DNA of 64,000 nt from Thermoanaerobaculia bacterium (GTDB lineage: Bacteria; Acidobacteriota; Thermoanaerobaculia; Multivoradales; Multivoraceae): NCBI GenBank assembly GCA_963666565.1, contig OY762911.1, positions 2,464,001-2,528,000 on the forward strand, in the 5' to 3' direction. Made by a program: the position numbers and the translations under genes. The notes under the pieces are model-generated. The model was given only the letters and a program-made list of their open reading frames with translations, had not been told where the DNA came from and searched no databases. Below, piece after piece: positions 12,861 to 44,761 of this stretch (positions are counted from its first letter, which is position 1; each line of letters opens with the position of its first letter).

Positions 12861-12923
12861 CGGAACCACACGAACCTTGCCGATCCGGAAGGGCGGCTCG
12901 GAAGGGCGCTATCCTACGCCCCC

Positions 12924-28547: not shown

Positions 28548-28588
28548 GCGGAGGGGCGCCGCTCTCTTCGGTCGGGTGATGGACCCGG

Positions 28589-28960
28589 CTACACGCACAT
28601 GATCTGGCTCATGCCGAGGAGTTGGTTGCCGTAGGTCTTGAGCCTCGGCTGCTTTGTGCCTTCGCCCAGGACGATGTAGACGATGCCGCTGAGCAGAAGC
28701 GTGGTGCAGCCCAGCTTCGACCAGCGGCCCCCTTCCGCGCTCTCCAGGTCGATCGTCCGGAGACCGTCGAGCTCGGGGCGAGGCAGGCTCGTTGCCTGCT
28801 TCGCGGGATCCCCGTAGAGCGCCGCATCCGCGTGGGGGGCCGCATCCGCGTACGGGGCCGCATCCGCGCGGAGCGCGGCGCCCGCGTCGGGCGCGGCGGC
28901 CAGGGGAGCGCCGGCGGTCGTGAGGAGGAGGGCCAGTGCGATGGCTGTGAGGTTCTTCAT
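28589..28960 (-). CDS. Small secreted precursor peptide B (signal peptide + double-glycine-type leader + two-Cys core)
   Basis: AAAGGAG RBS; MKNLTAIALALLLTTAGAPLAA signal; LRTIDLESAEGG motif; core RWSKLGC...MCV. Confidence 0.75.
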   Translation of the reverse strand: MKNLTAIALALLLTTAGAPLAAAPDAGAALRADAAPYADAAPHADAALYGDPAKQATSLPRPELDGLRTIDLESAEGGRWSKLGCTTLLLSGIVYIVLGEGTKQPRLKTYGNQLLGMSQIMCV

Positions 28961-29020
28961 GGTCGATGGCTCCTTTGCCTGTGGATGGTTGAGAAGAGGC
29001 TCTTGCCCCTCCTGTAGACA

Positions 29021-29057
29021 AAGACGCGATCCGGCGGCGAAACACGGTTTCGCCGCC
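29021..29057. promoter_or_regulatory. Shared 14-bp motif plus 11-bp hairpin upstream of peptide B
   Basis: AAGACGCGATCCGG (29021-29034) is identical to 30298-30311; stem GGCGGCGAAAC/GTTTCGCCGCC at 29033-29057. Confidence 0.45.
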
Positions 29058-29156
29058 CGGTGTTCGCCGTTCTCGCGGCGCTCGAACAGGAAGGGCCGGC
29101 CGTTCGACCGGGCCGGCGGGTAGACGAACCGCCGTGCGACCGTTCGTCTTCGCGCG

Positions 29157-29849
29157 TCAGCCGCTCAGCATCGTCTCGCGCCGTTCGGCGCGGGCGAAGG
29201 TGAGCGCGACGATGGCGGCGATGGCCAACGCGATGCCGATGCGGTTCTGGAGGCCCATGGCGAGCAGTTGCTCCGCGTCGGCGCCTTCTACCGCCAGAGG
29301 ATTCCAGAGCGGTGAGACCCGTAGCTGTGATGCTCCCGAGGCGGTGATCCAACCGTTCAGAGCCAGGATCCCGCCGGCGGCCAGGGCACCGGTTGCCTGG
29401 CTACGGAACAGAGTGGACATTCCCATTGACGCGGCCAGGTAGAAGATGACGCCTTGAAAGGCGCCGTAGAGAGTCTGGACGACAGGGAACGGCGTGAAGA
29501 AGGCGAAGGTCAGGATCGCCATCAGGCCGAGGGCCAGAAGCAGCATCAAGCAAGCGGCGGCCAGCTTCCCGATCCAGACGCGACGCGTTCCGCCCGGCAC
29601 TGTGTAGGCGACTTCGAGGGTACGTTCATCGAGTTCCCCTGCGACGATGCGGCCGCCCAGAAACACCCCGAGGACCGCGACCGGCAGTCCGATCAGGATG
29701 TTCTGGGCGGCCGCGGGCTCGAAGCTCGGGCGGCCGCCGGCGATCAGGAGGCCGGCCTGCGCCAGGAGCCAAAGTGCCGGCGACAGGGGCAGCAGCCACC
29801 AGCGGCGACCGGCGAGCAGCACGGCGGGTAGGTGGACCGGCGCGATCAA
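29157..29849 (-). CDS. Small ABC-2-type permease, paralog 2
   Basis: 230 aa, about 6 TM; GELDERTLEVAYTVPG; C-terminus nearly identical to paralog 1. Confidence 0.8.
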   Translation of the reverse strand: MIAPVHLPAVLLAGRRWWLLPLSPALWLLAQAGLLIAGGRPSFEPAAAQNILIGLPVAVLGVFLGGRIVAGELDERTLEVAYTVPGGTRRVWIGKLAAACLMLLLALGLMAILTFAFFTPFPVVQTLYGAFQGVIFYLAASMGMSTLFRSQATGALAAGGILALNGWITASGASQLRVSPLWNPLAVEGADAEQLLAMGLQNRIGIALAIAAIVALTFARAERRETMLSG

Positions 29850-29889
29850 CCTACGGGCTCGCCGTGTTTGTCGCGGATCGTCGTCACCA

Positions 29890-30183
29890 CTAGACGCACT
29901 TCAGATGCTGAAGAACACGGCCGCCGACCTGTAGAACCCGGTTTGCGGAAAGCCAGCCGGCTACGAAGAGGATGCCGCCAGCGATCCGAAGGCCGGCGGT
30001 GCAGGCGTCGTGCCGGAACGCGGCGCCGACGACGTCGGCCAGGTCGGCCTCGGCAAGCTGCCGAACTCCCGGGTCGTGAACGACGGGTGCCCCGTCGAGT
30101 GCGGCCGGGTTCGGCGGTTCGGCGACGGCGGCGCCGGCCAGCAGCAGAATGGCGGAAAGTGCGATGGATGCGAACTTCGTCAT
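29890..30183 (-). CDS. Small secreted precursor peptide A (signal peptide + double-glycine-type leader + two-Cys core)
   Basis: Start reassigned to ATG 30183 after AAAGGA; MTKFASIALSAILLLAGAAVA signal; LAEADLADVVGA motif; core AFRHDAC...KCV. Confidence 0.75.
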   Translation of the reverse strand: MTKFASIALSAILLLAGAAVAEPPNPAALDGAPVVHDPGVRQLAEADLADVVGAAFRHDACTAGLRIAGGILFVAGWLSANRVLQVGGRVLQHLKCV

Positions 30184-30297
30184 GATGTTGATTCCTTTCT
30201 TTGGAAACGGGTTGTTCGAATGGCGGAGCGGCGTCTTCCGGCCCGGCGCGAGCACAGGGCCCGGCGCCGGGAACGGCTGCAGCTTCCGCTATGGACT

Positions 30298-30311
30298 AAG
30301 ACGCGATCCGG
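30298..30311. promoter_or_regulatory. Shared 14-bp motif upstream of peptide A
   Basis: AAGACGCGATCCGG, identical to 29021-29034. Confidence 0.45.
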
Positions 30312-30354
30312 ACGAAAAAGTCGGCGAACTCGTTTCCGGGGCGAAGTGACCGGC

Positions 30355-31047
30355 TCAGCCGCTCAGCATCTTCTCGCGCCGTTCGGCGCGGGCGAAAGTG
30401 AGCGCGACGATGGCGGCTATCGCGAGGGCGATGCCGATCCGGTTCTGTACGGCGAGCGCGAGTAGGCGTTCCGGGTCGATGTCCTCGATCGCCAGCGGGT
30501 TCCAGAAGGGCGAGACGCGCACGGGCTGGGTCCCCAGGCCGGTGATCAGGCCGTTGAAGCCGAGGACGGCCACGCTCGCGAGGGCGCCGGCCACTTCGCT
30601 GCGGAACAGCGTGGCGAACCCCATCGCGGCGGCGAGGTAGAAGGCGATGCCCTGAACGGCGCCGTAGAGGCTCTGGAGCACGGGGAAGGGAGTGAAGAAG
30701 GCGTAGGTGACCGCCGCCATGACGGCCACGCTGGCGCCCAGCAGCAGCCCGGCCGCGGCGAGTTTGCCGAGCCAGACGCGGTGGGCGCCGCCCGGCACCG
30801 TGTAGGCGATCTCCAGGCTGCGCTGGTCGAGTTCGCCGACGATCGTCCGGCCGCCGAGGAAGATGGCGAGCACCGCGACCGGCACGCCGATCAGCGTGTC
30901 CTGGGCCGCCGCGGGTTCGGCGGTTTCGCGGGCGCCGATCAGCAGCAGCAGTGCCTGCAGGCCGAGCCAGAGGAGCGGCAGCAGCGGCAGCAGCCAGAAC
31001 CGCCTGCCGGCCAGCAGCACGAGGGAGAGGCGAAGCACGGCCGTCAT
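30355..31047 (-). CDS. Small ABC-2-type permease, paralog 1
   Basis: ATG 31047 overlaps the upstream stop (ATGA); 230 aa; GELDQRSLEIAYTVPG; about 6 TM. Confidence 0.82.
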   Translation of the reverse strand: MTAVLRLSLVLLAGRRFWLLPLLPLLWLGLQALLLLIGARETAEPAAAQDTLIGVPVAVLAIFLGGRTIVGELDQRSLEIAYTVPGGAHRVWLGKLAAAGLLLGASVAVMAAVTYAFFTPFPVLQSLYGAVQGIAFYLAAAMGFATLFRSEVAGALASVAVLGFNGLITGLGTQPVRVSPFWNPLAIEDIDPERLLALAVQNRIGIALAIAAIVALTFARAERREKMLSG

Positions 31048-34000
31048 GCCGGCGCCTCCCCGCGCGCGGCACGGGCGAGCCAGAGATAGCCGTCCTCGAG
31101 CGTCGGTTCGACCGGTTCGGCGGCGTCGTTCGGTGGCCCTGAAGCGAGCACGCGCAAGCGGTTGCCTGCGGCTTCCGGCCGGCTGTCGGCCAGGACGGCG
31201 CCGGGCGGCAGGTCGGGTTGCTCCTCGCCCTCGGTCCGCCACGACCAGACTCGCCCGTCGGCCTCGCGCGACAGGGCGTCGGGCACGCCGTCGAACACCA
31301 GGCGGCCGCTGCTCAGCACGAGGACGCGCTCGCACGCCACCGCCACGTCTTCGACCACGTGGGTCGAGAACAGGACGATCCGGTCCTTGGCGAGCCGCGA
31401 CAGGAGGTTGCGGAAGCGCACCCGTTCGCGCGGGTCGAGGCCGACGGTCGGTTCGTCGACGACGATGATCGGCGGCAACCGGAGCAGCGTCCGCGCCACC
31501 GCGACGCGCTGGCGCATGCCGCCGGAGTAGCCGCCGATCGGTTCGCCGGCCCGCTCGGCGAGGCCGACCTCGGCCAGCAGGGACTCGATCCGCTCTTCCC
31601 GTACCTCCGGCTCTATCTGGTAGAGGGCGGCGTAGTACTCCAGGTACTGGCGGGCGGTCAGGCGGGCCGGCAGGCCGGCGTCCTGGGGCAGGTAGCCGAC
31701 CCAGCGCGCGAGATACTTGCGGATGCCGAGCAGCGGCACCCCTCCGATCGTGATCCGGCCGCGCGTCGAATCGAGGATCCCGGTCAACTGGCGGAGCAGG
31801 GTCGTCTTGCCGGCGCCGTTCGGCCCCAGCACGCCGACCATGCCGCGCTCCACGTCGAAGCTGACCGCCGCCAGCGCCCGCACCGTGTCGATGGGCAGGT
31901 CGAGGCCGAAGATCCGCGTCGCGGCGCCACGCCAGAAGACGAGCAGCGGGTTCCGGGAGCGACGGCGGTCCCGAGACGGGCTCTCCCGCCGCGCCGTCTC
32001 CCGGCGTGCGGTGCGGCGGCCCAACTGGACCACGGCGATGATGCCGCCGAAGATCGACAGGAAGATGGCCTCGGCGATGGCGAACTCGCCCGCGACCATC
32101 CAGGGCACGACGACGGCGGCCAGCGCGCCCCAGGGCATCAGCGCCGCCAGCACGCCCTCGACGCCGCCGGGCGCCACCCGGCCGAGCTCGTCGACGCGCC
32201 CGCGGGCCCGCCGGATCTCGAGCACCAGCCGGGACGCGATCGCGGCCGCCGCCGCGAGCAGGAGGAGCTTCCACAGCCCGTCCGCGATCCGGCTCACGGC
32301 GGCGATCGCGCCCGCAAGCAGCACGAGCAGGGGGAGCAGCCGGTCGCGGGCGTCGGCGGGGTGGAAGGGTTCGCCGTTCCGCGCCAGCACGCGCCGCGCG
32401 AAGTCGATCTTCGCGCGCAGCGCCCGCCGGAGCGGCCCGGGCAGGCCGTAGACCTTGCGCAGGTGCCGCACGACGAGTCGTGGCGGACCGTCCGCGGCCG
32501 CCGGCTCGGGCACGGCCTCCCTGGGCAGTGCCCGGACGGCGATGCCCAGCAGCGCGCCGCCGATCAGGATCGCCGTCGTGACCTGCCAGAACATCGACTC
32601 GACGACGTCGAACGCGAACAGCGGCCCGACGGCCGCGATCGTCGCGCCGAGCCAGACCATGACGACCCAGGGCCCGACCCGGCTGAAGAGTTCGTCGAGC
32701 CGGCGGAGGAACACGTAGCCGACGGGGATGACGAGCAGCGTGAGCACGGTCGCGGTCAGCAGTCCGCCGATGACCAGCACCGCGAAGGGCGGCCAGATCT
32801 CGTTGGCCCGGCCGGTGGGAATGGCGAGCGGGGCGAGCGCGGCGATCGTCGTGGCGCTGGTCATCAACACGGGGCGCGTCCGCTCCCTGACGGCGGCGAG
32901 GGCGGCCGCGCCGGCGCTCCAGCCGGCGCCGAGCGTCCGCTGCTGCATCCGGTCCACGAGCAGGACCGCCGGGTTCACCGCCAGTCCGAGCAGGACGAGA
33001 GCGCCCAGCAGGGCCATGCCGACCAGCCCCATCCCGCTGAAGACCAGCGCCCAGAGGGAACCGAGCAGGGTCAGCGGCAGGGCGAGCAGAACCAGCACGG
33101 GCAGGGTCATCGACTCGAAGGCGATCGCCAGGACGAGGAACAGGAGGGCGACGACCGGGACCAGGATCTTGCGGAACCAGTCCGTGCCCTGCGTGGACCG
33201 GTCGAGTTGCACGGTCGTGCCGGCGGGCCGGTAGACGGCGGCGATCGCGTCCTCGACGGCGCGGTCGAACGTCTGCCGCGCGGGGCCGCTGCCGGGCACG
33301 TCGCCGGACAGCCCGTAGGTCACCACCCGTTCGCGGCGCCCGTTGTGGTGGGTGATCACCGCCGCCGGCGGCGCCTGCCGCACGTCCGCCAGCGCCATGA
33401 CAGGCAGGACGCCCGCCCTGGTCGAGATCTGGAGCCGGGACAGGCCGGCGAGGGACACGTTCCGGTCGATCCCGCCGCCGTCCAGGACCTCCCGGTCGCC
33501 GAGCCCGCCCTCCAGCCGCTGAACCACGATCGGCAGCTCGCGGCCGCTGGGCAGCGGGTAGCCGCTGTTCATCCGGCTCCCCTCCCGGCCGGCGAGGTTC
33601 AGCATCGGCAGGACGTCGTCGAGCAGGACGCCGAAGGCCTCGAACGCGCGGCGATTCGGCCCGACGTGGATCTCCTCGGGGCCCGGCAGCACGGAGGGCG
33701 ACGCGTACGCGACCCCCTCGATGTTCCTGAGCCGGTCGGCGATCTCGTTCGCCAGGTCGGTCAGTTGTTCGTTGTCGTTGCCGGAGACGACGACCCGCTG
33801 GGGACCGCTGCCCAGCAGTTCCTCGGCGCCGCCGGCGCCGCCTCCTCCGCCGCCTCGACCGCCGCCGTCTTCCTCGCCGGGGCGGCTGAGCCTGATCGGC
33901 AACCGCCGCGCCGCGTCGCGGACGAGCCGGCGGACGCGGTTCGCGTTGAGGCCGGGCGGGCGCTCGTCCTCGGGCACGAGGTGTACCGTGAGCGAACCGC

Positions 34001-35846
34001 CCTCCTCGCGCACGAGGCTCTCGACGCGGTCGATCCCGTCGACGTCCCGCACCGACGCCTCGAGCCGCTCGAAGACTTGGACGGCGCCGTCCAGCGAACT
34101 CCGCCCCTGCGTGAGCCGTACCGAGAGCTGCACCTCGTCGGCGATTCGCGCCTGCGGTACGCCGCCCCCGATCACCAACGGCAACGCGATGACCGCCGTC
34201 AGGACGATCCCCAGCGCGACGAGGGTGACCAGGGTCGCCGGCCGCCTCAGGGCGGACGCGAGCCATCCGCTGAAGAGGACCCTGGTGGCTTCGGGCGGAG
34301 GTTCGCCGGCGAAGCGCTCCCGCCGTTCGCGCAGCACGGCGAGTCTCCGCAGGGCGGCCGGGGCCGCCAGCCAGCGCGCCAGCAGCGGCACCAGGCCCAT
34401 CGCGACGAGCAGGGAGCCCAGGAGCGGCAGCAGGATGGCCAGCGCGGCGATGGCGATCAGGTTGCGGATAGCGGGCGACCCGAGGTCGATCAGCATCGGC
34501 GGCAGGAAGACCGCCGCGGTCGTGGCGGACGCGGCGACGATGGCGCGCCCCGTGCGCCGGACGCCGCCGGCGGCGGCGGCGTCCGGGCCGTGGCCCCGCT
34601 CCAGGCGGCGCTGCACGGACTCGTAGACGACGACGCTGTTGTCGACCAGCAGCCCGACGCCGACCGCCAGGCCGAAGAGCGAGATCAGGTTGAGCGATTG
34701 CCCGGCGAGATAGAGGAAGCCGAGCGCCGACGCCAGACTGACCGGCACCGCGATCGCGACCACCGCCACCGCGCGCCACTGGCGAAGGAAGAGGAACAGG
34801 ACGAGCAGGGCGATGACGAAGCCGGAGAGGCCGAGATTGCGGAGCCGCTCCGTCTGTTCCTCGACCAGTTCGGCGGCGTCGAAGCCGATCGCGAGCCGCA
34901 CTCCGATCGGCGCCATCTCCTCGTTGATCTCGTCCACCCGCCTGCGGAGGTCGCGGCCGAGCCGGACCAGGTTCGCGCCCTCCTCCTGGAACGCGACGAG
35001 GCCGACGGCCGGTCGGCCGTCGACCCGGTTGGCCATCTGCCGGCGGCCCGGACCGATCTCGACGTGGGCGACGTGGCGGACGAGCACGGGGCGGTCGGGC
35101 CTCACCCGCACCTCGCCCAGGGACACGGGTCCCGCGGGCCGGCCGTCGAGCATGACCGCGGTCCGTCCGGCCTCGTCCTCCAGGCTGCCGAGGTAGCGGA
35201 GCCGCCCGGACGCTCCGCGGACCGCGTCGACCACCTCCTGCGGCGTCACGTCGAGCGCCGCGCAACGGTTCGGATCGACCCAGACCGTCAACTGCCGCGC
35301 GGCGCCGCCGGCCACCAGGGCCTGACTGACGCCCGGCACCGCCGCCAGCCGCGGCACGACGCGGTCCTCGACCAGTTCGTGGAGGGCGTCGATGTCCGCG
35401 GTCCCCGTCGCCTGGAGCGCCATCGCGAAGCTGGAGAGGATGCTGCTGTCGTTCGCCTGGACGTCGATGAAGGCGTCGCGCGGCTGGGTGCGGGCGATGT
35501 CGGCGGCCATCCGGTTGACGTCCAGTTCCCGCACCTTGAGGTCCGTGCCGCGCTCGAAGCGGATCGTGAAGGTGCCGGCGGAACCGGTCACCTCGCCCCA
35601 GGTCTCGGCGACGCCCGCCAGGGTGCGGACCCGCGCCTCCAGCGGCAGCAGCATCTCCCGCTCGACCGTCTCGGGCTCGCTGCCGGGGCGGATGAAGGAG
35701 ACGAACAGGCGGTCGCCGCTGACGTTCGGGAAGAGCTCGACCGGCAACCGCTGCCAGCCCACCGCGCCGACCAGCACCAGGCCGAGGAAGAACATGGCCA
35801 CCGCCACCGGGCGCCGGATGGCGAGGGTGTCGAGACCGTACTTCAC
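31044..35846 (-). CDS. RND (AcrB-like) permease fused to a C-terminal ABC ATPase domain
   Basis: AIRRPVA, GLLVDNSVVV and ERTRPVLMT (RND); GPNGAGKTT, YLPQD, YSGGMRQR, IIVVDEPT and STH (complete ABC motifs) in one 1600-aa ORF. Confidence 0.88.
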   Translation of the reverse strand: MKYGLDTLAIRRPVAVAMFFLGLVLVGAVGWQRLPVELFPNVSGDRLFVSFIRPGSEPETVEREMLLPLEARVRTLAGVAETWGEVTGSAGTFTIRFERGTDLKVRELDVNRMAADIARTQPRDAFIDVQANDSSILSSFAMALQATGTADIDALHELVEDRVVPRLAAVPGVSQALVAGGAARQLTVWVDPNRCAALDVTPQEVVDAVRGASGRLRYLGSLEDEAGRTAVMLDGRPAGPVSLGEVRVRPDRPVLVRHVAHVEIGPGRRQMANRVDGRPAVGLVAFQEEGANLVRLGRDLRRRVDEINEEMAPIGVRLAIGFDAAELVEEQTERLRNLGLSGFVIALLVLFLFLRQWRAVAVVAIAVPVSLASALGFLYLAGQSLNLISLFGLAVGVGLLVDNSVVVYESVQRRLERGHGPDAAAAGGVRRTGRAIVAASATTAAVFLPPMLIDLGSPAIRNLIAIAALAILLPLLGSLLVAMGLVPLLARWLAAPAALRRLAVLRERRERFAGEPPPEATRVLFSGWLASALRRPATLVTLVALGIVLTAVIALPLVIGGGVPQARIADEVQLSVRLTQGRSSLDGAVQVFERLEASVRDVDGIDRVESLVREEGGSLTVHLVPEDERPPGLNANRVRRLVRDAARRLPIRLSRPGEEDGGGRGGGGGGAGGAEELLGSGPQRVVVSGNDNEQLTDLANEIADRLRNIEGVAYASPSVLPGPEEIHVGPNRRAFEAFGVLLDDVLPMLNLAGREGSRMNSGYPLPSGRELPIVVQRLEGGLGDREVLDGGGIDRNVSLAGLSRLQISTRAGVLPVMALADVRQAPPAAVITHHNGRRERVVTYGLSGDVPGSGPARQTFDRAVEDAIAAVYRPAGTTVQLDRSTQGTDWFRKILVPVVALLFLVLAIAFESMTLPVLVLLALPLTLLGSLWALVFSGMGLVGMALLGALVLLGLAVNPAVLLVDRMQQRTLGAGWSAGAAALAAVRERTRPVLMTSATTIAALAPLAIPTGRANEIWPPFAVLVIGGLLTATVLTLLVIPVGYVFLRRLDELFSRVGPWVVMVWLGATIAAVGPLFAFDVVESMFWQVTTAILIGGALLGIAVRALPREAVPEPAAADGPPRLVVRHLRKVYGLPGPLRRALRAKIDFARRVLARNGEPFHPADARDRLLPLLVLLAGAIAAVSRIADGLWKLLLLAAAAAIASRLVLEIRRARGRVDELGRVAPGGVEGVLAALMPWGALAAVVVPWMVAGEFAIAEAIFLSIFGGIIAVVQLGRRTARRETARRESPSRDRRRSRNPLLVFWRGAATRIFGLDLPIDTVRALAAVSFDVERGMVGVLGPNGAGKTTLLRQLTGILDSTRGRITIGGVPLLGIRKYLARWVGYLPQDAGLPARLTARQYLEYYAALYQIEPEVREERIESLLAEVGLAERAGEPIGGYSGGMRQRVAVARTLLRLPPIIVVDEPTVGLDPRERVRFRNLLSRLAKDRIVLFSTHVVEDVAVACERVLVLSSGRLVFDGVPDALSREADGRVWSWRTEGEEQPDLPPGAVLADSRPEAAGNRLRVLASGPPNDAAEPVEPTLEDGYLWLARAARGEAPA

Positions 35847-35859
35847 GGGCGGTTCCGGA

Positions 35860-38800
35860 TCAGGCGTCCGCCGGCCGGCGCCGCGTCAGGCGGAACGAGT
35901 CGAGGATCAGGTAGACGCAGGGGAGCACGAGGAGCGAGCCGACGGTCGAGGTCAGGATGCCGCCGATGATCGTGTACGCCATCGGCCCGCGGAGTTCGGC
36001 CGCTTCGCCGGCGCCGACCGCCAGCGGCAGGAGCACGAGGACGGTGGTCAGCGTCGTCATCAGGATGGGCCGGAGCCGGATGGCCGCGGCGCGGGCCAGG
36101 GCGGCGCGCCGCTCCATGCCGGCGGCCATCAGCCGGCGGGCGGTCGCGAGCAGCAGCACGGCGTCGTTGACCGCAACCCCGGCCAGCACGATCAGCCCCA
36201 GGAGCGCCATGACGCCGACCGGGTTGCCCATCGGCCCCAGGGTGCAGGCGACGCCGACCAGGGCCAGCGGGATGGAGAACAGCACGGTGAGCGGCTGCAG
36301 CAGCGACTCGAACGTGCCGGCCAGCACCATCAGCACGAGGACGATCGCCAGCAGGCCGGCCCAGCGCAGCTCGCCCACCGCCTGCTCGCGCTCCTCCTCC
36401 TCGCCGGCCAGGCGCACGATCATGCCGGGCGGCAGCGCGGCGGCGCCCAGCACTTCCTCGGCGGCCGCCACCGCGCGCGGATAGTCGCTGCCGGTCGCGA
36501 TGCGGGCCGTGACCTGGGCCACCCGGCGCTGATCCCGGCGGAAGACCTCCCGGGCGCCTTCGGCGGGCTCGAAGCGGGCGACCTGGCCGAGGGCGAGCCG
36601 GGCGCCGCCGTCGTTCGTGAAGCGGAGGTCGGCGAGGTCCTCCGGGCGGGGTTGGGGCAGGGTGAGGACGACGTGGCGTTCCTCGTCGCCGGTCGAGAGC
36701 AGGGTGACGCGCCGCCCGTCGAGCGCCGACTCGAGCACGCGCGCGATCGTCTGGAGATCGACGCCCAGACCGTCCGCCATCGCCCGGTCGAGTTCGATGC
36801 GGAGTTCGGGCGGCCCGCCCTCGAAGGAGGAACGGACGTTCCAGACCTCCGGGCGGGAGGCGAGGGCCTCGCGCAGCTCGGACGCCACGGCGCGCAGGTC
36901 GGGCAGGGACTGGCTCGCGATCTCGAGCGCGATCGGCGGGCCGGTCGATCCGAGCGCCTCGGCCAGGGCGGAGGCGCCGACCTCCCACTCGATCTCGGTA
37001 TCCGGTATGTCGCGGAACCGCGGCGACAGGGCGTCCACGATCTGGTTGCCCGTCGGGCCGTCGGGCGAGAGCCGCACCAGGATCCGGGCGGTGTTCTCCT
37101 CCGTCAGTTCGGTGGTCACCAGCCGGTCGTCCTCGGGCAGGCGGCCGACTTCGGCCTGGATCGCCTCCAGGTGTTCGCCCGCGGCCTCGCGGATCGCGGC
37201 CTCCAGGGTGGCAACCGCGTTGGCCGTGGCCTCGACGCGCTGGCCGGCGGGGCCCACCATGCGAATGGAGAACTGCCGCGGGTCGGAGGGCGGCAGGAGC
37301 TCGCTGCCGAGGCCGAGCAGGACGTGGACCGCGCCGGCCGCGGCCAGGACCGCCGCCGGAACGACCGCCCAGCGTAGCCGCAGCAGGCCCAGGACCAGGC
37401 GTTCCGTCGCCCTGAAGGCGCGGCCGAGGGGGGGCGCCTCTTCCTCTTCCGTGGCCTCTGGCGCGTCCTCTACGGCCGCCGCCGGTTCGCCGCTGTGGCC
37501 GGCGGAGCTGGCGGCCGCGGCCTTCGCCCGCGGCAGCAGCCAGCGCGACAGGGCGGGGATCAGCATCATGGCGACCGCCAGCGAAGCGCCGAGCGAGGCG
37601 ACGACGGTGAACGAGATGCCCTCGATCAGGCGGGCGGCGAGTCCCTGGACGAACAGCACCGGCAGGAACACGACGCAGGTGGTCAGGGTCGAGGCGGCGA
37701 TGGCTCCCGCCACCTCCGAGGCGCCGCGGGCGGCGGTGTCCGCGGCCGACACGCCGGGGCGGTGGCGGCGGTGAATGCTCTCGACGACGACGATCGCGTT
37801 GTCGACCAGCATGCCGGCGCCGAGCGCCAGCCCGGCGAGGGTGATGATGTTGAGCGAGTGGTCCGCCAGGCGCATGGCGAACAGGGCGACGAAGAGGGAC
37901 ACCGGAACCGCCGACGCGACGACCACGGTCGGTCCGAGGGAGCGGAGGAACAGCGCCAGGACGACGATCGCCAAGGCGATGCCGACCAGCGCGGCGTTCA
38001 TCAGGTCGTCCATCGCGTTCTCGACCAGCGCCGCGTCGTCGTTGACCATGGACACGCTCACCCTGGGGAGGTCGCGCTCCAGGTCGTTGAGCGCGTCCCG
38101 CACCGTGCGGGACACCTCGACCGTGTTGGCCCCGGCCTCCTTGAACACCTGGAGCCCCACGCCCTCCACGCCTCCGACCCGGACCAGGTGGTCGATCTCG
38201 GCGTCGGCCAGCGCCACGTCGGCGACGTCCGATACCCGGATCGGCTGGCGGGTCATCTGGCCGGCGGCGCCCTGCTGGGTACGGTAGCGAACCACGACGC
38301 GTTCGACGTCGCGCGCTTCGCGGAAACGGGCGATGCCGCGGACGAGGTAGACGTCGCCTCCGTCCTCCAGGGTGCCGGCGTCGATGTCCAGGTTCTCCGC
38401 CATCAAGCGCTGCTCGAGTTGATTCAGAGTGACGCCGAACGCCTCGAGCCGGTAGCGGTCGACCCGGACCTGCACCTCGAGGTCCCGTCCGCCGAGAACG
38501 CGCACCTCCGCCACGTCGGGAAGCTCTTCCATGGCGGGCGCCAGTTGCCGACGGGCCAGCCGGCGCAGCTCGGCGAGGTCCGGCCCGTCGTCCTCCGCCA
38601 CCAGGCCCAGGGTCATCACCGGCGCTTGGCGGGGGTCGAGATGCCGGACGAGGACCTCGTCGACCTCCGGGTCGGCGGCGACGGGGTTCACGGCCTTCTG
38701 GACCTCGATCAGGGCGAAGTCCATCTCGGCGTCCCAGTCGAACCGGACGGTTGCGATGAGCCGCCCGGAACGGGCCACCTGCTGCACTTCGCGGATGCCG

Positions 38801-39048
38801 CGCACGGTGAACAGCCGCTGCTCGACCTGCTCGCCGTACAGGCGCTCCATCTCGGTCGGCGGCCGGTCGCCGGAGCGGACCGCGACGACGATCGTGGGCG
38901 AGCGCAGGTCGGGCAGCAGGTCGATCGGCAGCTCGCGCCAGGAGATCCAACCGACGAGCGCGAAGGCCAGCGCGGTGACCGTGACCGCGACCGGGCGCCG
39001 CGCGGCGAGACGTGCCGCCGCGGACGTGCTACCGGGCGCCGCGGTCAT
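35860..39048 (-). CDS. RND efflux permease
   Basis: AARRPVA, GMLVDNAIVVVE and RLRPILMTT motifs; 1062 aa. Confidence 0.92.
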   Translation of the reverse strand: MTAAPGSTSAAARLAARRPVAVTVTALAFALVGWISWRELPIDLLPDLRSPTIVVAVRSGDRPPTEMERLYGEQVEQRLFTVRGIREVQQVARSGRLIATVRFDWDAEMDFALIEVQKAVNPVAADPEVDEVLVRHLDPRQAPVMTLGLVAEDDGPDLAELRRLARRQLAPAMEELPDVAEVRVLGGRDLEVQVRVDRYRLEAFGVTLNQLEQRLMAENLDIDAGTLEDGGDVYLVRGIARFREARDVERVVVRYRTQQGAAGQMTRQPIRVSDVADVALADAEIDHLVRVGGVEGVGLQVFKEAGANTVEVSRTVRDALNDLERDLPRVSVSMVNDDAALVENAMDDLMNAALVGIALAIVVLALFLRSLGPTVVVASAVPVSLFVALFAMRLADHSLNIITLAGLALGAGMLVDNAIVVVESIHRRHRPGVSAADTAARGASEVAGAIAASTLTTCVVFLPVLFVQGLAARLIEGISFTVVASLGASLAVAMMLIPALSRWLLPRAKAAAASSAGHSGEPAAAVEDAPEATEEEEAPPLGRAFRATERLVLGLLRLRWAVVPAAVLAAAGAVHVLLGLGSELLPPSDPRQFSIRMVGPAGQRVEATANAVATLEAAIREAAGEHLEAIQAEVGRLPEDDRLVTTELTEENTARILVRLSPDGPTGNQIVDALSPRFRDIPDTEIEWEVGASALAEALGSTGPPIALEIASQSLPDLRAVASELREALASRPEVWNVRSSFEGGPPELRIELDRAMADGLGVDLQTIARVLESALDGRRVTLLSTGDEERHVVLTLPQPRPEDLADLRFTNDGGARLALGQVARFEPAEGAREVFRRDQRRVAQVTARIATGSDYPRAVAAAEEVLGAAALPPGMIVRLAGEEEEREQAVGELRWAGLLAIVLVLMVLAGTFESLLQPLTVLFSIPLALVGVACTLGPMGNPVGVMALLGLIVLAGVAVNDAVLLLATARRLMAAGMERRAALARAAAIRLRPILMTTLTTVLVLLPLAVGAGEAAELRGPMAYTIIGGILTSTVGSLLVLPCVYLILDSFRLTRRRPADA

Positions 39049-39117
39049 GGCGCCGGGCGCGTGGCGTCGCCGCCACCGCGTCGCAGTCGGAGATGGACCG
39101 GCTCTTCATCCGGCCGC

Positions 39118-40218
39118 TCATCCAGAGACGCTGACGCGGGTGCCGTCGGTCAGCGTTTCGAGTCCTCGGACGACGACCCGCTCGCCGACTTCGAGCCCCT
39201 GCCGCACCTCGGCGACCTCGTCGTCGCCGAGCCCGAGGACGACCTCGCGCCGAACGACGCGCTGCCCGTCGAGAACGAAGACGACGCGCCGGCCGCCCCG
39301 CTCGGTGATCGCCTCGCGCGGCACCACCGGGACTTCGTTCCGTTGCTCGACGACCAAGCTGACTTCGACGAACATGCCGGGCCGCAGCAGGCGGCCCGGG
39401 TTGCGCACGGCGACCTCGGCACGGAAGGTGTGGGTCACCGGGTCGACCTCGGGCGAGAGCCGGACGACCCCGCCGCCGAAGCTCTGGCCCGGCCAGGCGA
39501 AGTGCCGCAGCCGGGCTTCCTGGCCGGGGCGGACCCGCGCCAGTTCCGGGCCGACGAGGTCGATGTCGGCGATCAGCGAGTCGACGGGGGAGATGCGGGC
39601 GACCTGGAAGCCCTGGGTCACCAACTGGCCGTCGGCGACCGGCATGCCCTGGGCGTCGCGGGCGACCTCCATCAGCACGCCGCCGATCGGGGTGAGCAGG
39701 CGGGCCCGGTCTTCGGTGAGCAGACTCTGTTCCCAGCCCGCCTTCGCTTCCTCGAGCGACGTCTCCGCGCGGCGGAGCTCTTCGGCGCTGATCAGCTCCT
39801 GCTCGAACAGCCGGACGCGGGCGTCCCGCTCGGCCAGCGCCGAGAGGTAGGCCTTGTGGGTGACCTCGACCCGGGCGGCCAGGCGGGCGTCCTCGCCGGT
39901 GACCTCGGCGATGAGCTGGTCCGGAGTGACGCGGTCGCCCTCGGCGAGCCGGCGGCCGGACGGATGGCGCCCGACCTCCAGGCGGCCCGGGGTCTCGACC
40001 TGGAGCACCACGCTCTCGGCGGCCCGGAGCGTGCCGGTGGCCACGATCAGGTCCTCGACGTCCCCGGTCGTGACCTCGGCGGCGCTGACCGGGACCAGGA
40101 AGTCGATTTCGTTCGGGGCGCTAGCGGCCTGGCAGCCGAGGAGGACGGCGCAGGCGGCCGCCGCGGCAGCGCCGCGGCGGCGGACGGCGGGGGGGAATCT
40201 GCGGGCGGTCTCGTTCAC
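39118..40218 (-). CDS. RND periplasmic adaptor (MFP), lipoprotein
   Basis: GTG 40218 overlaps the upstream stop (GTGA); VLLGC lipobox; TPIGG, SPEVDPVTHTF and LRPGMFV motifs. Confidence 0.88.
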   Translation of the reverse strand: MNETARRFPPAVRRRGAAAAAACAVLLGCQAASAPNEIDFLVPVSAAEVTTGDVEDLIVATGTLRAAESVVLQVETPGRLEVGRHPSGRRLAEGDRVTPDQLIAEVTGEDARLAARVEVTHKAYLSALAERDARVRLFEQELISAEELRRAETSLEEAKAGWEQSLLTEDRARLLTPIGGVLMEVARDAQGMPVADGQLVTQGFQVARISPVDSLIADIDLVGPELARVRPGQEARLRHFAWPGQSFGGGVVRLSPEVDPVTHTFRAEVAVRNPGRLLRPGMFVEVSLVVEQRNEVPVVPREAITERGGRRVVFVLDGQRVVRREVVLGLGDDEVAEVRQGLEVGERVVVRGLETLTDGTRVSVSG

Positions 40219-43200
40219 TGGATCGCTACGCCTCCGCCGGTGGGCGCCGCGTCCGCGGCGCCGCCGGTGTCGAGCCGGACGAAGCGGACGGCGTCGGCCG
40301 CCACCGCGGTGCCCTCGGTCCGGTCGCTGAGCACCAGCGAGACGGGGCCGGACGCGAGGTCGAAATCGCCCAGGACCGCCCAGCCGGGGCCGGCGCTGGC
40401 GGCGTCGAAGTCGATGGATCGCGAACTGCCGCCGTTCTCGAGCTCCAGGTCGTAGTCGCCGAGCCGGAGGCCGAGGTTCACCGAGACCTGGACGCCCTCG
40501 TTTCCGCCCCGGCTGGGGGCGCCGCCGCCATCGTCGCCGATCCGCACCTCCCGCCGGATCTCTCCCGTGCCGGGCGGCAGCGGCGACAGGGACGGCACAT
40601 GGATCTCGACCCGCCAGCGGCCGGCTTGCGGCAGGTGGGCGCTGTAGGTTGCGCGGCGATCTCCCTCGCCGGCCGGGCCGACGACGGCCGTTCGCCGGTA
40701 GCGGCCCCAGCTTCGCGGCTGCCTGTAGCGCGACCACTCCCGGGGGGCGCCGAGGAAGGGCTGGTAGACGGGCAGGCCCCGGTCCAGCTCGATCGAGGGC
40801 GCGAAGTAGCCGGTCAGCCCTCCCTGGAGTCTCACGCCGCCGTCCGAGGCGGCCTTCTCGTCGCTGACCGAGAACCCGGAATCCAGGTCGTCGACGACGA
40901 TCACCTCGGTGTCCGCGTCGAGCCAGTCGGGCAACCAGTCGCTGGGCCGCGCGCCGCGCAGCGGCGCGCGCTCGACGATCCGCTCGCTGTCGACCGCGGG
41001 AAGGTCCACCGGGAACTCGCCCCGGTTGAGGGAGAGGTAGGGCGACGCGAGCATCAGTCCCGGCGGCGTCGACGTGACCAGCCCGAACTCCACCGAGGTC
41101 AGGCCCGGAACGAGGACCGGCTCGCTCGAGTCCCACCGCGGGCCGGCGTCGGACCGGACGGCGTAGCGGAGGCGGAACAGCCCCGGCGTCGGCTCGCCGT
41201 TGTGGACGGAGAGTCGGGTCTCGTACCGCGGGGCGCCCTGGTCGTCGTCGGCGAGGCGGACCAGGTCGGCGGCGGAGACGACGAAGCCGGGCAGGTCCGT
41301 GTCGTGCAGGAAGTCGCCCACCAGGCCGGCGAGGTCGATGCCCGCTTCCCCGGCGGCGCGGTCGAGGTCGGCGGCGTCGAAGGTCGTCCCCGCGTGGTCG
41401 CGCACCAGGTTCGCGACCATGGCCGCGGTCCGTTCGCGCCCGGCGCCGTCCAGGATGGCGGTGGCGAGCGCCGACGTCTTCAGATAGATGGCGTTGACCG
41501 CCCGCCTGGGATCTTCCTCCACCCTCAGGTCGGTCAGGGAGCTGCCGAGCACCGCCTCCCAGACTTCCGGGCGGTCCGTGATCGCGTTGACGATGCCGCT
41601 GGAGACGGAACCGCCGCCGGCCGCGAACTGGCCGCTGAACCCGTCCTGCAACGCGTTGCTGAGGGTCCAGCCCATGTTGCGGTCGAAGAGGTGGACGGAG
41701 AAGTAGGACTCGCCGCCGGTCACCAGCCGGTTGACCAGGTTGTGGCACAGCGCTTCCAGCGCCAGGGATTCGGGGCCGCGAGCGCCGGTGCGGTAGAGGA
41801 ACAGGTTGCGCGCGCCGCCCACCAGAATGTTGCCGCCGGTGTAGTCGTTGGCGAAGTAGTTCTCAAGTCCCAGCGCCTTGGCGCGCGGCAGGCCTCCTTC
41901 CCGGTCCTCGAACCGTTCGGGGTTGCGGAAGGTGAACTCGAAGCGGGAAGTCGGCAGTCCGTTCTCGCCGATCAGCAGCATGCCGGGCGGCGCCCTTGCG
42001 GTGTCCATCCTCCATCCGCCGCCGTAGCCGCGCAGGGTCCACGGCACCTCGACCAGGGAGAGTTGCCGGTAGGGGTAGGGGAGGCCGACTTCCCGGGCCG
42101 TGGCGAAGTGCTCGGCCGCGCGCTCCTCGATCGCCTCGCGGGCGTCGGCGAAGAACTCCAGGTTGCGGAGGTGGCGCCGGTCGAACAGCACTTCGATTTC
42201 GACGCCGTCGACCTCGGTCGTCCGGCGATCGTAGACGCCGGCGATCAGGGCGGCCTCCGGCACGGCCGCCGCCGGCCGGAAGCGTACGCGGTCGCCGTTC
42301 GGCTCGCCCTTGCCGGGGCCGGCGACGGTCCAGCCGGACGGGGCGCCGACGTCGAGGTCGAGCTCGAAGAAGTCCCGCGGCCGCTTCCGCGGGTCGTCGA
42401 CGCCGATCAGGGCGCCCGCGCGGGGCAGCCAGGCGAGGCCCGGGACCAAGGACACGAAGCGGCGCTCCAGTACGCCGTTGAGCGAGCCGAGAAGGACCAC
42501 CTGGGCGTCCTGGTAGCTGAGCCGCTCCAGGTCGATCGTCGAGTCCAGGTAGGCGAAGCGGATGTCGGGCCGGCCGCGGGCGCGCAGCCGCAGGTCGACC
42601 GTCTCGCCGGCCGCTGCTCGGCCGAGGTCGACCTCCAGCAGGCCGTCCCGGTGGGTGAAGGGGAGGGATCCGCCGGATCCGTGCTCGACCGCGTCGACCG
42701 CGATGCCGGGGTTCAGGCTGAACAGTGCCTGGGCGCCGCCGGCCGGGGCGAACCGGACCTCGAGGTCCAGGTCGAGGCGCCCCCCGGGCCCGATGTCGAC
42801 CGTGCCCCGGATGCGCTCGACATCGACCGCCGGCTCCTCCTGCCGGGCACGGTGCGCGTCCCGCCAGCCGTCGACCATGTCGAGTTCTCCCCGGCTTCCG
42901 CCGAACATGGCGACCAGGGTGGCGGCGCCGACGGCGCACAGGCCGCCGCCGCCGAGCCCCCAGGCGCGCCGGCGGGCGTCGTCGAGCCGCGGATGGACCG
43001 CGACGGCGATGCCGAGGAGCCCGGCGGCGAGGACCGTCAGGCTGCCCCGGTTCAGGATGTTCTCGGCGTTCCAGAGCTGCGGCGCCAGTTCCGAGATGTT
43101 GCCGGTGAAGCCGCCGTTGATGCCCAGGACGGGCAGCGCGTAGACCGGCAACCGCACGCTCAGCCAGATGCCGCCGATCGCGAGCCCGACGCCGGCCAGC

Positions 43201-43766
43201 GCCGCGACCAGCCGGTTCCGGCTCACCAGGGCGACGGCCTGGACGAAGGCGACGTAGAGCGCGAGGGCCGGTAGCGCGTCCAGGATCAGGAAGGCCCATA
43301 CGGAACTCCACAACGCGGGCTCGCCGACGTACCAGCCGAGGCCAATGGCGAGGTAACCGAAGCCCTGGATCAGCATCAGCGCCAGGACCGCGACGCTCAT
43401 CGCCATGAGCAGGGCGCCGGCGAACCGCCCCAGCACCAGTTCGGCGTTCGAGTAGGGCCGGCTGTCCAGGACCTCGATCACGCGGTCGCGCCGGTCCCGG
43501 GCGCGCAGGTCGAAGGCGAGGAAGATGACGCCGATGGCGAGGACGACCGTCTGCCACGACCCCATCTGAGCGAGCAGGTACCTGGGACTGAAGATCGAGA
43601 CGCTCCCCGACCAGCCGGACGCCAGGCCGTGGAAGGCCCAGTAGAAGCCGTACGACACCACGCAGTACAAGAGCGCGGCGCCGGAGAAGAACCAGAACCG
43701 GAACAGGCGGCGGATGGTGCGCATCTCGGCCCGGGCCAGGGTCCATGCCGCGGCGAGTGAAATCAC
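40215..43766 (-). CDS. Large ABC-2 permease fused to a degenerate M1-aminopeptidase-like ectodomain and a C-terminal golvesin/CBD-like domain
   Basis: N-terminal TMs with RDRRDRVIEVLDSRPYSN; FSLNPG and PYRQLSLVEVP; no HEXXH seen; C-terminal GWAVLGDFDL...LSD...ADAVRFV. Confidence 0.72.
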   Translation of the reverse strand: MISLAAAWTLARAEMRTIRRLFRFWFFSGAALLYCVVSYGFYWAFHGLASGWSGSVSIFSPRYLLAQMGSWQTVVLAIGVIFLAFDLRARDRRDRVIEVLDSRPYSNAELVLGRFAGALLMAMSVAVLALMLIQGFGYLAIGLGWYVGEPALWSSVWAFLILDALPALALYVAFVQAVALVSRNRLVAALAGVGLAIGGIWLSVRLPVYALPVLGINGGFTGNISELAPQLWNAENILNRGSLTVLAAGLLGIAVAVHPRLDDARRRAWGLGGGGLCAVGAATLVAMFGGSRGELDMVDGWRDAHRARQEEPAVDVERIRGTVDIGPGGRLDLDLEVRFAPAGGAQALFSLNPGIAVDAVEHGSGGSLPFTHRDGLLEVDLGRAAAGETVDLRLRARGRPDIRFAYLDSTIDLERLSYQDAQVVLLGSLNGVLERRFVSLVPGLAWLPRAGALIGVDDPRKRPRDFFELDLDVGAPSGWTVAGPGKGEPNGDRVRFRPAAAVPEAALIAGVYDRRTTEVDGVEIEVLFDRRHLRNLEFFADAREAIEERAAEHFATAREVGLPYPYRQLSLVEVPWTLRGYGGGWRMDTARAPPGMLLIGENGLPTSRFEFTFRNPERFEDREGGLPRAKALGLENYFANDYTGGNILVGGARNLFLYRTGARGPESLALEALCHNLVNRLVTGGESYFSVHLFDRNMGWTLSNALQDGFSGQFAAGGGSVSSGIVNAITDRPEVWEAVLGSSLTDLRVEEDPRRAVNAIYLKTSALATAILDGAGRERTAAMVANLVRDHAGTTFDAADLDRAAGEAGIDLAGLVGDFLHDTDLPGFVVSAADLVRLADDDQGAPRYETRLSVHNGEPTPGLFRLRYAVRSDAGPRWDSSEPVLVPGLTSVEFGLVTSTPPGLMLASPYLSLNRGEFPVDLPAVDSERIVERAPLRGARPSDWLPDWLDADTEVIVVDDLDSGFSVSDEKAASDGGVRLQGGLTGYFAPSIELDRGLPVYQPFLGAPREWSRYRQPRSWGRYRRTAVVGPAGEGDRRATYSAHLPQAGRWRVEIHVPSLSPLPPGTGEIRREVRIGDDGGGAPSRGGNEGVQVSVNLGLRLGDYDLELENGGSSRSIDFDAASAGPGWAVLGDFDLASGPVSLVLSDRTEGTAVAADAVRFVRLDTGGAADAAPTGGGVAIQ

Positions 43767-44761
43767 GATGCGTCCTCCTCTCGGGAACCCTGGCGGGCGA
43801 CCGCCTCGTCGTCGTCCCAGCAGACGTCGGCGTCGCCGTCGCTCTCGCCGAAGTGGCCGTCCCGCAGCAGATCCTCGGCGCGGCCGCGGGCGAGCATGAA
43901 GGCCAGGTACCCCTCCTCGAGCGTCGGGTCGGAGGCGGGCCGGGCGTTCTCGGGCAGGCGCCCCGGCGCCGCGACGCTGCGGTAGGTCGTCTCGGTGGGG
44001 CCGACCGTGCGCGAGACGATCTCGAAGTCGCCCTGCGGCGGCGGCGCGGAGGCGGGCAAGGTGAGCTCGAACACCTGGCCCTGGGCCCGTTCGAGCAACT
44101 CCCCGGGCGAGCCGCGGAAGACGATCGCGCCGCCGTCGAGCAGGGCGAGATCGTTGCAGCCGGCGCCGAGGTCGGCGACGATGTGGGTGGACAGGACGAT
44201 CGTCCGCTCCTTGCCCAGCGCCGTCATCAACTGGCGGAACCGGATCCGTTCCTCGGGGTCGAGCCCGACGGTCGGCTCGTCGACGATCAGCAGTTGCGGC
44301 CGGTGGATCAGGGCCTGCGCGATGCCGAGCCGGCGCGTCATGCCTCCGGAGAGCTTCTTCACCTTGCGGTGGGCGACCTCGCCCAGCCCGACGCTCTCAA
44401 GGACCGAGTCGACCCGGGCGCGCCGTTCGGCCCGGCCCTTCAGGCCCGAGAGATCGGCCAGCGTGTCCAGCGCCTCCTCCACCCGGTGCAGCCGCCAGGC
44501 GCCGAACTCCTGCGGCAGGTAGCCCAGGTGGGAGCGAACGGCACGGCGCTCCTTGAGCGCGTCGTGGCCGAAGACCGTTACGGCGCCGGCGCTCGGCTGT
44601 AGCAGCGTGCAGAGAATGCGCATCAGCGTGCTCTTGCCGGCGCCGTTCGGGCCCAGCAGACCGAACAGTCCGGCGCCGATCGACAGGTCGACCCCGTCGA
44701 GGGCGACCGTGCCTCCCTTGTAGACGTGCCGGAGGCCCTGCACGTCGACGGTCGTGCTCAC
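43763..44761 (-). CDS. ABC transporter ATP-binding protein
   Basis: GPNGAGKST, LSGGM, IVDEPT and STH motifs; GAGGAGGAG RBS. Confidence 0.93.
   Translation of the reverse strand: MSTTVDVQGLRHVYKGGTVALDGVDLSIGAGLFGLLGPNGAGKSTLMRILCTLLQPSAGAVTVFGHDALKERRAVRSHLGYLPQEFGAWRLHRVEEALDTLADLSGLKGRAERRARVDSVLESVGLGEVAHRKVKKLSGGMTRRLGIAQALIHRPQLLIVDEPTVGLDPEERIRFRQLMTALGKERTIVLSTHIVADLGAGCNDLALLDGGAIVFRGSPGELLERAQGQVFELTLPASAPPPQGDFEIVSRTVGPTETTYRSVAAPGRLPENARPASDPTLEEGYLAFMLARGRAEDLLRDGHFGESDGDADVCWDDDEAVARQGSREEDAS

Follow-up and report, generated by a model that had tools for sequence, protein, structure and literature searches.

A conserved hybrid RND-ABC pump operon with genus-specific peptide and permease cassettes in a Thermoanaerobaculia bacterium

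We analysed a stretch of 64,000 nucleotides, hereafter the window, from the genome of a Thermoanaerobaculia bacterium (Acidobacteriota; Multivoradales; Multivoraceae). The genome is a single contig of 4.79 Mb (GenBank assembly GCA_963666565.1, contig OY762911.1), of which the window occupies positions 2,464,001-2,528,000. The subject of this study is a cluster of nine co-oriented minus-strand genes between window positions 44761 and 28589 (G+C over the locus ∼72%), in which components of resistance-nodulation-division (RND) and ATP-binding cassette (ABC) transporters stand beside genes for two small peptide precursors.

In the order of transcription, the cluster begins with an ABC-2-type ATPase of 332 aa (43763-44761; Pfam ABC_tran, 9e-32), the partner of a large ABC-2 permease of 1183 aa (40215-43766) that has an ABC2_membrane_2 match at residues 8-196, an M1-like ectodomain and a C-terminal beta domain matching Golvesin_C (3e-08). 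A periplasmic adaptor of the membrane fusion protein (MFP) family follows (39118-40218; TIGR01730 RND_mfp, 165.9 bits against a cut-off of 94.9; HlyD_D23, 7.4e-18), then a plain RND permease of 1062 aa (35860-39048; ACR_tran, 3.4e-199) and an RND-ABC fusion protein of 1600 aa (31044-35846) with ACR_tran at residues 8-1047 (3e-139) and ABC_tran at 1327-1467 (3e-26). The remaining genes encode small ABC-2-like permease 1, the core copy (30355-31047; 230 aa; weak ABC2_membrane, E 0.002-0.003), the peptide A precursor (29890-30183; 97 aa), small permease 2, a genus-specific extra paralogue (29157-29849; 230 aa; ABC2_membrane_2, 5.7e-06), and the peptide B precursor (28589-28960; 123 aa).

This gene content and order agree with a preliminary description of the locus apart from two small coordinate corrections: a 258-aa open reading frame (ORF) at 30296-31072, tried as permease 1, was rejected because it is in the wrong frame and has no family match, and the start of peptide A is the ATG at 30183. 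The translational overlaps described at 43763-6, 40215-8 and 31044-7 could be read directly from the bases, as GTGA between the ATPase stop and the large permease start (43766-43763), GTGA between the large permease stop and the MFP start (40218-40215), and ATGA between the fusion stop and the start of small permease 1 (31047-31044); a gap of 13 nt separates the RND stop from the fusion start. The cluster was also said to lack TolC, and indeed no outer-membrane factor (OMF) is encoded in the window, all 11 OEP domain matches of the genome lying elsewhere, the nearest ∼160 kb away. A scan of 28300-31200 for sigma-70 promoters returned no promoter-like sites and a single terminator-like site (1.5 expected), and Rfam had no match over 28300-45300 at E up to 0.1.

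Gene order was compared across 80 related loci from genome contigs, 21 in the window's clade and 59 outside it, which define a core of six genes: ABC ATPase, large ABC-2 permease, MFP, RND, RND-ABC fusion and small permease. MFP, RND and fusion stand in this order in 62 of the 63 loci with room for them. Of 75 loci with room for a small permease, 73 have one immediately after the fusion. For the large permease, 52 of 63 loci carry the gene upstream in the same orientation and 2 carry it on the opposite strand; in 9 it was not found. These loci span at least three phyla, including Acidobacteriota, Gammaproteobacteria (Pseudomonadales, Azotimanducaceae) and Desulfobacterota (Desulfatiglandales), and one of them (L083) belongs to a cultured acidobacterium. 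Within a sample of the class, the core is present in all 26 genomes of the genus, neither of 2 genomes from sister genera and 2 of 172 other genomes; within a sample of the phylum it is present in 20 of 401 genomes, the window genome included. The gene-order counts show that the composite RND and ABC operon put forward in the preliminary description is real and conserved. The small downstream signal-peptide ORFs expected to accompany it have a narrower range, as they occur in 18 of 21 loci from the window's clade and in none of the 59 outside it.

The RND-ABC fusion carries its ACR_tran and ABC_tran domains in a single open frame. A database search restricted to long proteins returned 1280 relatives of its last 551 residues, and all 120 relatives listed have both domains and a length of ∼1600 residues, under source names that are generic only. 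Shorter proteins (303-966 residues) matching the linker numbered 29 and were mostly fragments still bearing the RND domain; on contigs longer than 10 kb at most three lacked it. The rarity and largely fragmentary nature of the short matches indicate that the module is scarcely found on its own. For the last 552 residues, an AlphaFold (AF2) model built with 52 homologues reached a mean predicted local distance difference test score (pLDDT) of 86.2 and places two membrane helices first, followed by the opening strand of the ATPase, a basic helix, a pair of helical hairpins and the remainder of the ATPase. The first strand, with the A-loop Tyr, is thereby split from Walker A by ∼190 residues holding four transmembrane (TM) helices. 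The short loops (FDVVES, IADG and GEFA) contain no Lys or Arg and the long loops contain 7, 3 and 7, a distribution that obeys the positive-inside rule and so puts the ATPase in the cytoplasm with six extra membrane helices.

All 52 fusion C-termini share an invariant set of ATPase motifs (Y85, GPNGAGKTT at 293-301, Q340, SGG at 393-395, D416-E417 and H448), which correspond to the A-loop Tyr, Walker A, Q-loop, signature, Walker B with catalytic Glu, and H-loop. On this model the fusion is an RND protein joined via six predicted extra TM helices to a split but motif-complete ABC ATPase. Foldseek matches of the modelled C-terminus cover the ATPase only (best TM_1403, NosF and ABCA-type domains), and the six-helix insertion found no Protein Data Bank (PDB) match of its own by Foldseek. 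Three fusion homologues (P0075, P0083 and P0084) are 1840-1876 aa long and also contain sigma-70 region 4 domains (PF04545, PF08281), being either a further fusion or merged gene calls. One genome of the genus, G121, has two fusion copies (C1:5065319-5067901 and 4534765-4537533), each ∼1 kb from a match to the peptide profile described below.

Both RND modules are full length, the plain RND covering positions 3-1020 and the fusion positions 4-1020 of the ACR_tran model (1021 positions), as in the AcrB-like 12-TM architecture. They differ at the proton-relay positions, which we compared by aligning with MAFFT 138 RND modules taken from the window and the 80 related loci. In TM4 the plain RND reads VDNA (62/67) or VDNS (5/67), and in TM10 VNDA (63/67) or VNPA/VNPG (4/67). 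The fusion reads VDNS or IDNS in TM4 (70/71) and [VIL]NP[AG] in TM10 (70/71), and all lineages sampled have Pro at this TM10 position. The few exceptional rows probably stem from modules assigned to the wrong query. The window's plain RND thus has an Asp in TM4 (VDNA) and an Asp in TM10 (VNDA), and its fusion, set against the structure 7cz9_A of the hydrophobe/amphiphile efflux-1 (HAE-1) family, has VDNS for VDDA in TM4 and VNPA for CKNA in TM10. Neither module carries the HAE-1 Asp-Asp/Lys relay (D407, D408 and K940 in AcrB), and with 536.6 and 356.3 their NCBIfam subfamily scores stay far short of the cut-off of 1250. An acidic residue is retained in both TM4 and TM10 of the plain RND; to judge from these residues, the fusion may be unable to run on protons alone.

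The ATPase gene at the head of the operon has DrrA and GldA as its best NCBIfam matches, both below their cut-offs. In four of five distant genomes the large permease is immediately preceded by an orthologue of this ATPase (60-65% identity); in the fifth the orthologue is 1.4 Mb away. The Pfam ABC-2 scores of the three permeases fall short of the gathering threshold, narrowly for the large permease (25.8) and permease 2 (26.2), for which it is 27.2, and further for permease 1 (17.4); the operon context fits ABC-2 permeases. The sole match of the large permease in a PDB sequence search is NosY (E 0.0082). An AF2 model of its residues 300-1183 (pLDDT 82.2, predicted TM-score 0.82) returned the aminopeptidases IRAP, EryP, PepN and ERAP1 as top Foldseek matches to the ectodomain, over ∼640 columns and with E down to 6.6e-19. 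The M1 family zinc site consists of HExxH-x18-E and is accompanied by a GxMEN motif. No HExxH is present in 34 aligned large-permease homologues, for which reason an active peptidase was rejected, and Pfam Peptidase_M1 gave no match to the large permease even at E 5. The ectodomain is a predicted periplasmic, catalytically dead M1-aminopeptidase-like fold, which we read as a putative binding domain; that it might bind peptides is a guess.

The two peptides showed no similarity to each other by BLASTP. They nevertheless belong to one hypervariable family, for A and B align with 22 homologues from related loci around an invariant Gly of the double-glycine (GG) site and two invariant Cys residues, and both match the family profile (A, 1.5e-29; B, 1.9e-21), results by which we rejected the possibility of two unrelated chance ORFs. 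Each gene has a ribosome-binding site, AAAGGA, ∼8 nt before its ATG. From N- to C-terminus the precursors consist of a Sec-type signal (e.g. MKKVLSIAVAALLLSVGGAFA followed by EPP), a pro-region, a double-glycine-type leader (LAEADLADVVGA in A, LRTIDLESAEGG in B) and a core, which is hydrophobic, contains two Cys and ends in KCV in A and in MCV in B. The family motif of the leader is L-[TS]-D-x-[DE]-[LM]-x-x-V-x-G-[GARE]. Double-glycine leaders typically end in G-[GAS] preceded by a motif of the L-x3-E-L-x2-I type, and the family has the invariant Gly, L44 in at least 90% of members, and the acidic and hydrophobic positions in register. All 29 peptides contain exactly two Cys, spaced 33-38 residues apart with 1-2 residues after the last, and cores are 39-46 residues long in the 27 peptides with a correctly anchored pattern, with a mean grand average of hydropathy of +0.74, a mean net charge of +1.1 and 29% Gly plus Ala. 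Mean column identity is 0.66 in the signal and 0.43 in the core. The earlier interpretation of these small ORFs as Sec-signal peptides with a double-glycine-type leader and a C-x end is accordingly borne out by both alignment and profile.

The profile matched 21 of the 26 other genomes in the genus and none of 174 from elsewhere in the class, and no match with E below 1e-12 lies more than ∼5 kb from the fusion gene. In a set of 1.84 billion representative proteins its matches amount to just 33 clusters (E up to 0.001). A genome-wide regular expression for the peptide build found only the two window peptides among 52,160 ORF segments, and is not specific alone because a reversed-genome control gave 1. 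The extra length of peptide B (123 aa compared with ∼98 aa) is accounted for by four 18-nt tandem repeats at 28803-28892, which expand its pro-region with ADAAP[YH]-like hexapeptides. Upstream of peptide A lies an 18-nt motif, GGATCGCGTCTTAGTCCA (30292-30309, minus strand), with a second copy upstream of peptide B (29015-29032). The motif, whose general form is GGATCGCGTCTT[AT]GTC[CT]A, has exactly these two matches in the window at up to 2 mismatches, compared with 0 expected in 100 shuffles, and in four relatives a looser form precedes one type of peptide by ∼98 nt. The motif was found in 6 of 29 peptide upstream regions and in 61 of 2000 random segments, and may be a promoter or operator.

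Small permeases 1 and 2 are 67% identical (E 2e-91), and at the DNA level they form a repeat with a spacing of 1198 nt and an identity of 71-81%. No extra permease was found outside the window's genus. When 97 small permeases were placed in a quick maximum-likelihood tree, all 24 extra copies came out as one group, small permease 2 of the window with them, nested in the clade of the genus (support 99). The small permease of locus L015 also joins this group in that tree (support of 94 by the SH-aLRT branch test), after rearrangement: between the fusion and this permease (L015:11727-13012) lie an integrase- or transposase-like ORF fragment and, in inverted orientation, a gene for another peptide of this family, which suggests that the cassette region was rearranged by an insertion sequence. 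By their phylogeny and distribution, the extra permeases appear to have arisen once and to travel with the peptides. Exchange between strains was compared over 17 loci (136 pairs). Loci L017 and L019 are identical in permease 1 (100%) and differ in peptide core (28%), permease 2 (74%) and leader (54%), while L012 and L019 are alike in peptide core (78%), permease 2 (92%) and leader (88%) and less so in permease 1 (70%). From these contrasts it can be argued that a peptide and its downstream permease move as a unit. The swapped unit may thus be a peptide with its downstream permease, in place of the permease and following peptide of the preliminary description.

A missing C39-ABC transporter had been remarked upon, and the cluster does lack both a C39 peptidase and a peptidase-containing ABC transporter (PCAT), no C39 being encoded anywhere in the window; a C39 peptidase is, however, present in the genome. 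Its one strong C39 is a stand-alone protein of 206 aa (Pfam PF03412, 1.4e-29, 103 bits against a cut-off of 22) with a basic N-terminus and one membrane helix, an arrangement from which the C39 domain should face the periplasm. It forms the middle of a trio (L091:1097-2530, genome position ∼1.9035 Mb) with an upstream anchored Thioredoxin_2 protein containing CxxC (168 aa) and a downstream secreted Pro/Cys-rich ORF of 106 aa without a family. The trio recurs in relatives, often followed by a two-Cys peptide with a GG leader. Anchored C39 proteins are found in all 31 genomes of the genus, with a second paralogue in eight. In four of five C39 loci fetched from relatives, the gene after C39 encodes a peptide with a signal, a GG-type leader and a Cys...Cys-x(1-3) end that matches the profile, and none of the five has a small permease alongside. 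Two of these matches also came up when the profile was run over whole genomes. Downstream of the pump in L015 lie the small permease, a C39 gene (Pfam 9.4e-32, 110.1 bits) and a peptide gene. The C39-adjacent peptides of the same build and the L015 cassette link this build to the pair of periplasmic C39 and thioredoxin. Export and cleavage by an ABC protein with a cytoplasmic C39 domain, as in PCATs, is not what is seen here, with a C39 that stands alone and precursors that carry a Sec signal.

We propose that bacteriocin-like peptide and permease cassettes were grafted onto a conserved, general hybrid RND-ABC pump, and that the extra permeases use the tethered ATPase, with release by way of RND, adaptor and OMF; we regard this as roughly an even bet. 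Its first layer, the conserved six-gene, two-module hybrid pump, is evident from sequence, synteny and fold, while we infer the mechanism from anatomy and precedent. One module would be an ABC-2 exporter made of the ATPase and the permease bearing the dead M1-like periplasmic domain. The other is an MdtABC-like set of adaptor, plain RND, RND-ABC fusion and translationally coupled small permease, in which plain RND and fusion might form a mixed trimer under the adaptor, with the outer-membrane channel encoded elsewhere. Two fusion subunits could then supply the two ATPase domains driving a small-permease dimer beside the RND, so that the ABC part would lift a membrane-embedded substrate and hand it to the RND part for expulsion. 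In the second layer, found only in this genus, precursor peptide and extra permease cassettes are attached to the operon end and swapped from strain to strain. The precursor would be exported by Sec, cut after G-[GA] by the membrane-anchored, periplasm-facing C39, and helped to close its Cys...Cys-x disulfide by the thioredoxin-like partner, to yield a hydrophobic, slightly cationic product of 39-46 residues that may act as a bacteriocin-like membrane-active peptide. The extra permeases, having no ATPase gene of their own, would borrow the tethered ATPase and pull the producer's peptide out of the inner membrane as self-protection, and the extracted peptide would be fed into the RND, adaptor and OMF path for release.

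A bolder claim would be that the pump represents a new class of dual-energy machine, a mixed trimer of one proton-competent RND and two relay-defective fusions that would carry a complete ABC-2 transporter and couple its ATP cycle mechanically to the RND cycle, using ATP to extract a membrane-embedded cargo and the proton gradient to expel it across the outer membrane, co-opted here for the secretion and immunity of a Sec-dependent, C39-processed, disulfide-stapled bacteriocin. We consider this version rather doubtful.

Several observations weigh against the proposal of cassettes grafted onto a general pump. Outside the window's clade all 59 loci have the core without peptide genes and with a single small permease, from which it follows that the main substrate of the core pump is something else; the idea in the preliminary description of a machine built around small peptides does not survive this comparison. 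Even within the genus, 5 of 26 genomes have no peptide by profile. Over the 136 pairs, Spearman correlation of the core with permease 2 (0.21) is no better than with permease 1 (0.27), and the leader alone tracks permease 2 better (0.64, compared with 0.43 for permease 1). Terminal peptides, peptide B included, have no downstream permease. As regards maturation, a C39 gene lies inside the cassette in only 1 of 80 loci, that of the window genome is 0.56 Mb away beside a different, Pro/Cys-rich peptide, and one of the five C39 loci from relatives (L127) has no match to the peptide profile. RND porter channels are known to take substrates well under 4-5 kDa, making passage of the peptide through the RND doubtful, and the mixed trimer with its arithmetic of two ATPases is pure inference.

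Part of this evidence would be satisfied if the cassettes conferred immunity only, with bacteriocins and their ABC-2 immunity permeases using the tethered ATPase in the style of LanFEG and the peptides leaving the periplasm by something other than the RND, adaptor and OMF route. Extra permeases do co-occur with peptides, in this genus alone, their swapping resembles toxin-immunity exchange, the core pump is peptide-free elsewhere, and peptides of 4-5 kDa are generally large for an RND channel. Such a system has, however, no reason to place its cassettes at the end of the pump operon in every genome with matches below E 1e-12, names no other way across the outer membrane, and must contend with terminal peptides that lack a permease of their own; on balance it seems to us unlikely. 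The double-glycine-type leader, the 18-nt motif common to both peptide upstream regions and a strain-specific variation that is also typical of pherotypes would fit signals or regulators of the ComC/Blp type, acting either as pheromones particular to each strain or as ligands that the pump senses or that modulate it. We think this quite improbable given that the cluster and its flanks showed no sensor kinase or response regulator, that the permease duplication is left unexplained, and that the hydrophobic, Gly/Ala-rich cores, predicted to be disulfide-closed, resemble membrane-active peptides.

There is a similarly slim chance that the small proteins are structural subunits, membrane hairpins that complete or tune the ABC-2 module and are neither cleaved nor released. 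Their C-terminal 40 residues are hydrophobic enough for a membrane and the numbers of peptides and permeases rise together, but a subunit of this kind is absent from the core pump in other phyla (0 of 59 loci), identical copies of permease 1 precede unrelated cores, and the conserved GG-type site, together with the same build beside C39 genes that have no permease, points to cleavage. The cassettes might also be mere hitch-hikers, the 3' end of the operon being a permissive landing site for a mobile element tied to the pump through read-through transcription alone. A recombination-prone region, as seen in the integrase-like fragment and inverted peptide gene of L015, and the swapping of cassettes between strains would favour this. 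It sits poorly, though, with a cassette position that is constant in 21 genomes and with an extra permease that is a paralogue of the pump's own and, for want of a dedicated ATPase gene, relies on the ATPase domains of the pump, and we judge it highly unlikely. The graft of bacteriocin-like cassettes onto a general pump, with release through it, remains our preferred reading, at the even strength given above.

Other genes of the window include a secreted 358-aa protein without a Pfam match (27471-28547, plus strand), convergent with peptide B, an orthologue of which also flanks the cassette region of L015 and so marks a stable outer limit of the variable region. There is also a second RND permease, of conventional type (16320-19511, minus strand; ACR_tran, 4.4e-272), located 9 kb downstream from the cluster and apparently unrelated to it. 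Further away are a single protein of 1199 aa combining biotin carboxylase, biotinyl and carboxyltransferase domains (9270-12869, minus strand), an AddAB-like pair made up of a PD-(D/E)XK nuclease and a UvrD-type helicase with a nuclease domain (51220-58637, plus strand), and an ISL3-family transposase (59563-60816, plus strand; DDE_Tnp_ISL3, 1.1e-68).

RND and ABC pumps are textbook examples of separate solutions to energy coupling. Here one conserved protein joins the two, which suggests that two motors can be wired into one machine. The cassettes, for their part, point to a maturation of double-glycine peptides that bypasses PCAT exporters and proceeds through Sec and a C39 in the periplasm; if true, this would widen the rules for bacteriocin genome mining and explain how diderms process such peptides outside the cytoplasm. 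Swapping of cassettes at the strain level suggests that closely related members of this uncultured acidobacterial genus compete with one another. Searches of open-access literature found no paper describing an RND-ABC fusion or Sec-exported precursors with GG leaders cut by a periplasmic C39, in keeping with the preliminary description, which knew of no characterised system of this architecture.

In the manner of the LanFEG systems, the small ABC-2 permeases are encoded beside the peptide that they might expel from the membrane, but here they have no dedicated ATPase gene and lie within an RND operon. Among the M1 aminopeptidases, PepN, IRAP/ERAP1 and EryP share the fold of the ectodomain, which differs in lacking HExxH and in being fused to an ABC-2 membrane domain. 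The ABC-2 (type V) exporters NosFY, DrrAB and GldAFG are closest to the ATPase, with permease matches that are weak (ABC2_membrane, NosY), but the ATPase of the fusion is split by membrane helices and covalently tied to an RND protein. The second module resembles MdtABC and MuxABC in its adaptor gene followed by two tandem RND paralogues (62 of 63 loci) and in having its OMF encoded elsewhere; MdtC and MdtB are the best NCBIfam equivalog-level matches, and the MdtB structure 9lyq_B is among the PDB matches. It departs from MdtABC in that the second RND bears six extra TM helices and an ABC ATPase, two ABC-2 modules are in the operon, neither RND has the AcrB-type relay, and scores fall far under the cut-off (536.6 against 1250). 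MdtBC is reported to assemble into RND heterotrimers (PMC8277102).

The peptides resemble double-glycine class II bacteriocins and microcins in their leader motif (L-x3-[DE]-[LM]-x2-[VI]-x-G-[GA]), their small, hydrophobic, cationic, Gly-rich core and their association with C39, and differ in having an additional N-terminal Sec signal. In known PCAT systems the C39 is the cytoplasmic N-domain of an ABC exporter, whereas the C39 here is stand-alone, anchored and predicted to be periplasmic. A tripartite-pump precedent for release is found in MacAB-TolC, which is reported to export the Sec-delivered, disulfide-bonded enterotoxin STII from the periplasm (PMC8277102); MacB is a type VII ABC protein without an RND component, and use of the pump for peptides in the present system would be by analogy. 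For maturation, a parallel is FapD of the Pseudomonas Fap amyloid system, reported to be a stand-alone periplasmic C39 protease acting on Sec-exported proteins (PMC5557850). FapD serves amyloid secretion via FapF and its targets lack canonical double-glycine leaders, whereas the peptides of the present cassettes have them.

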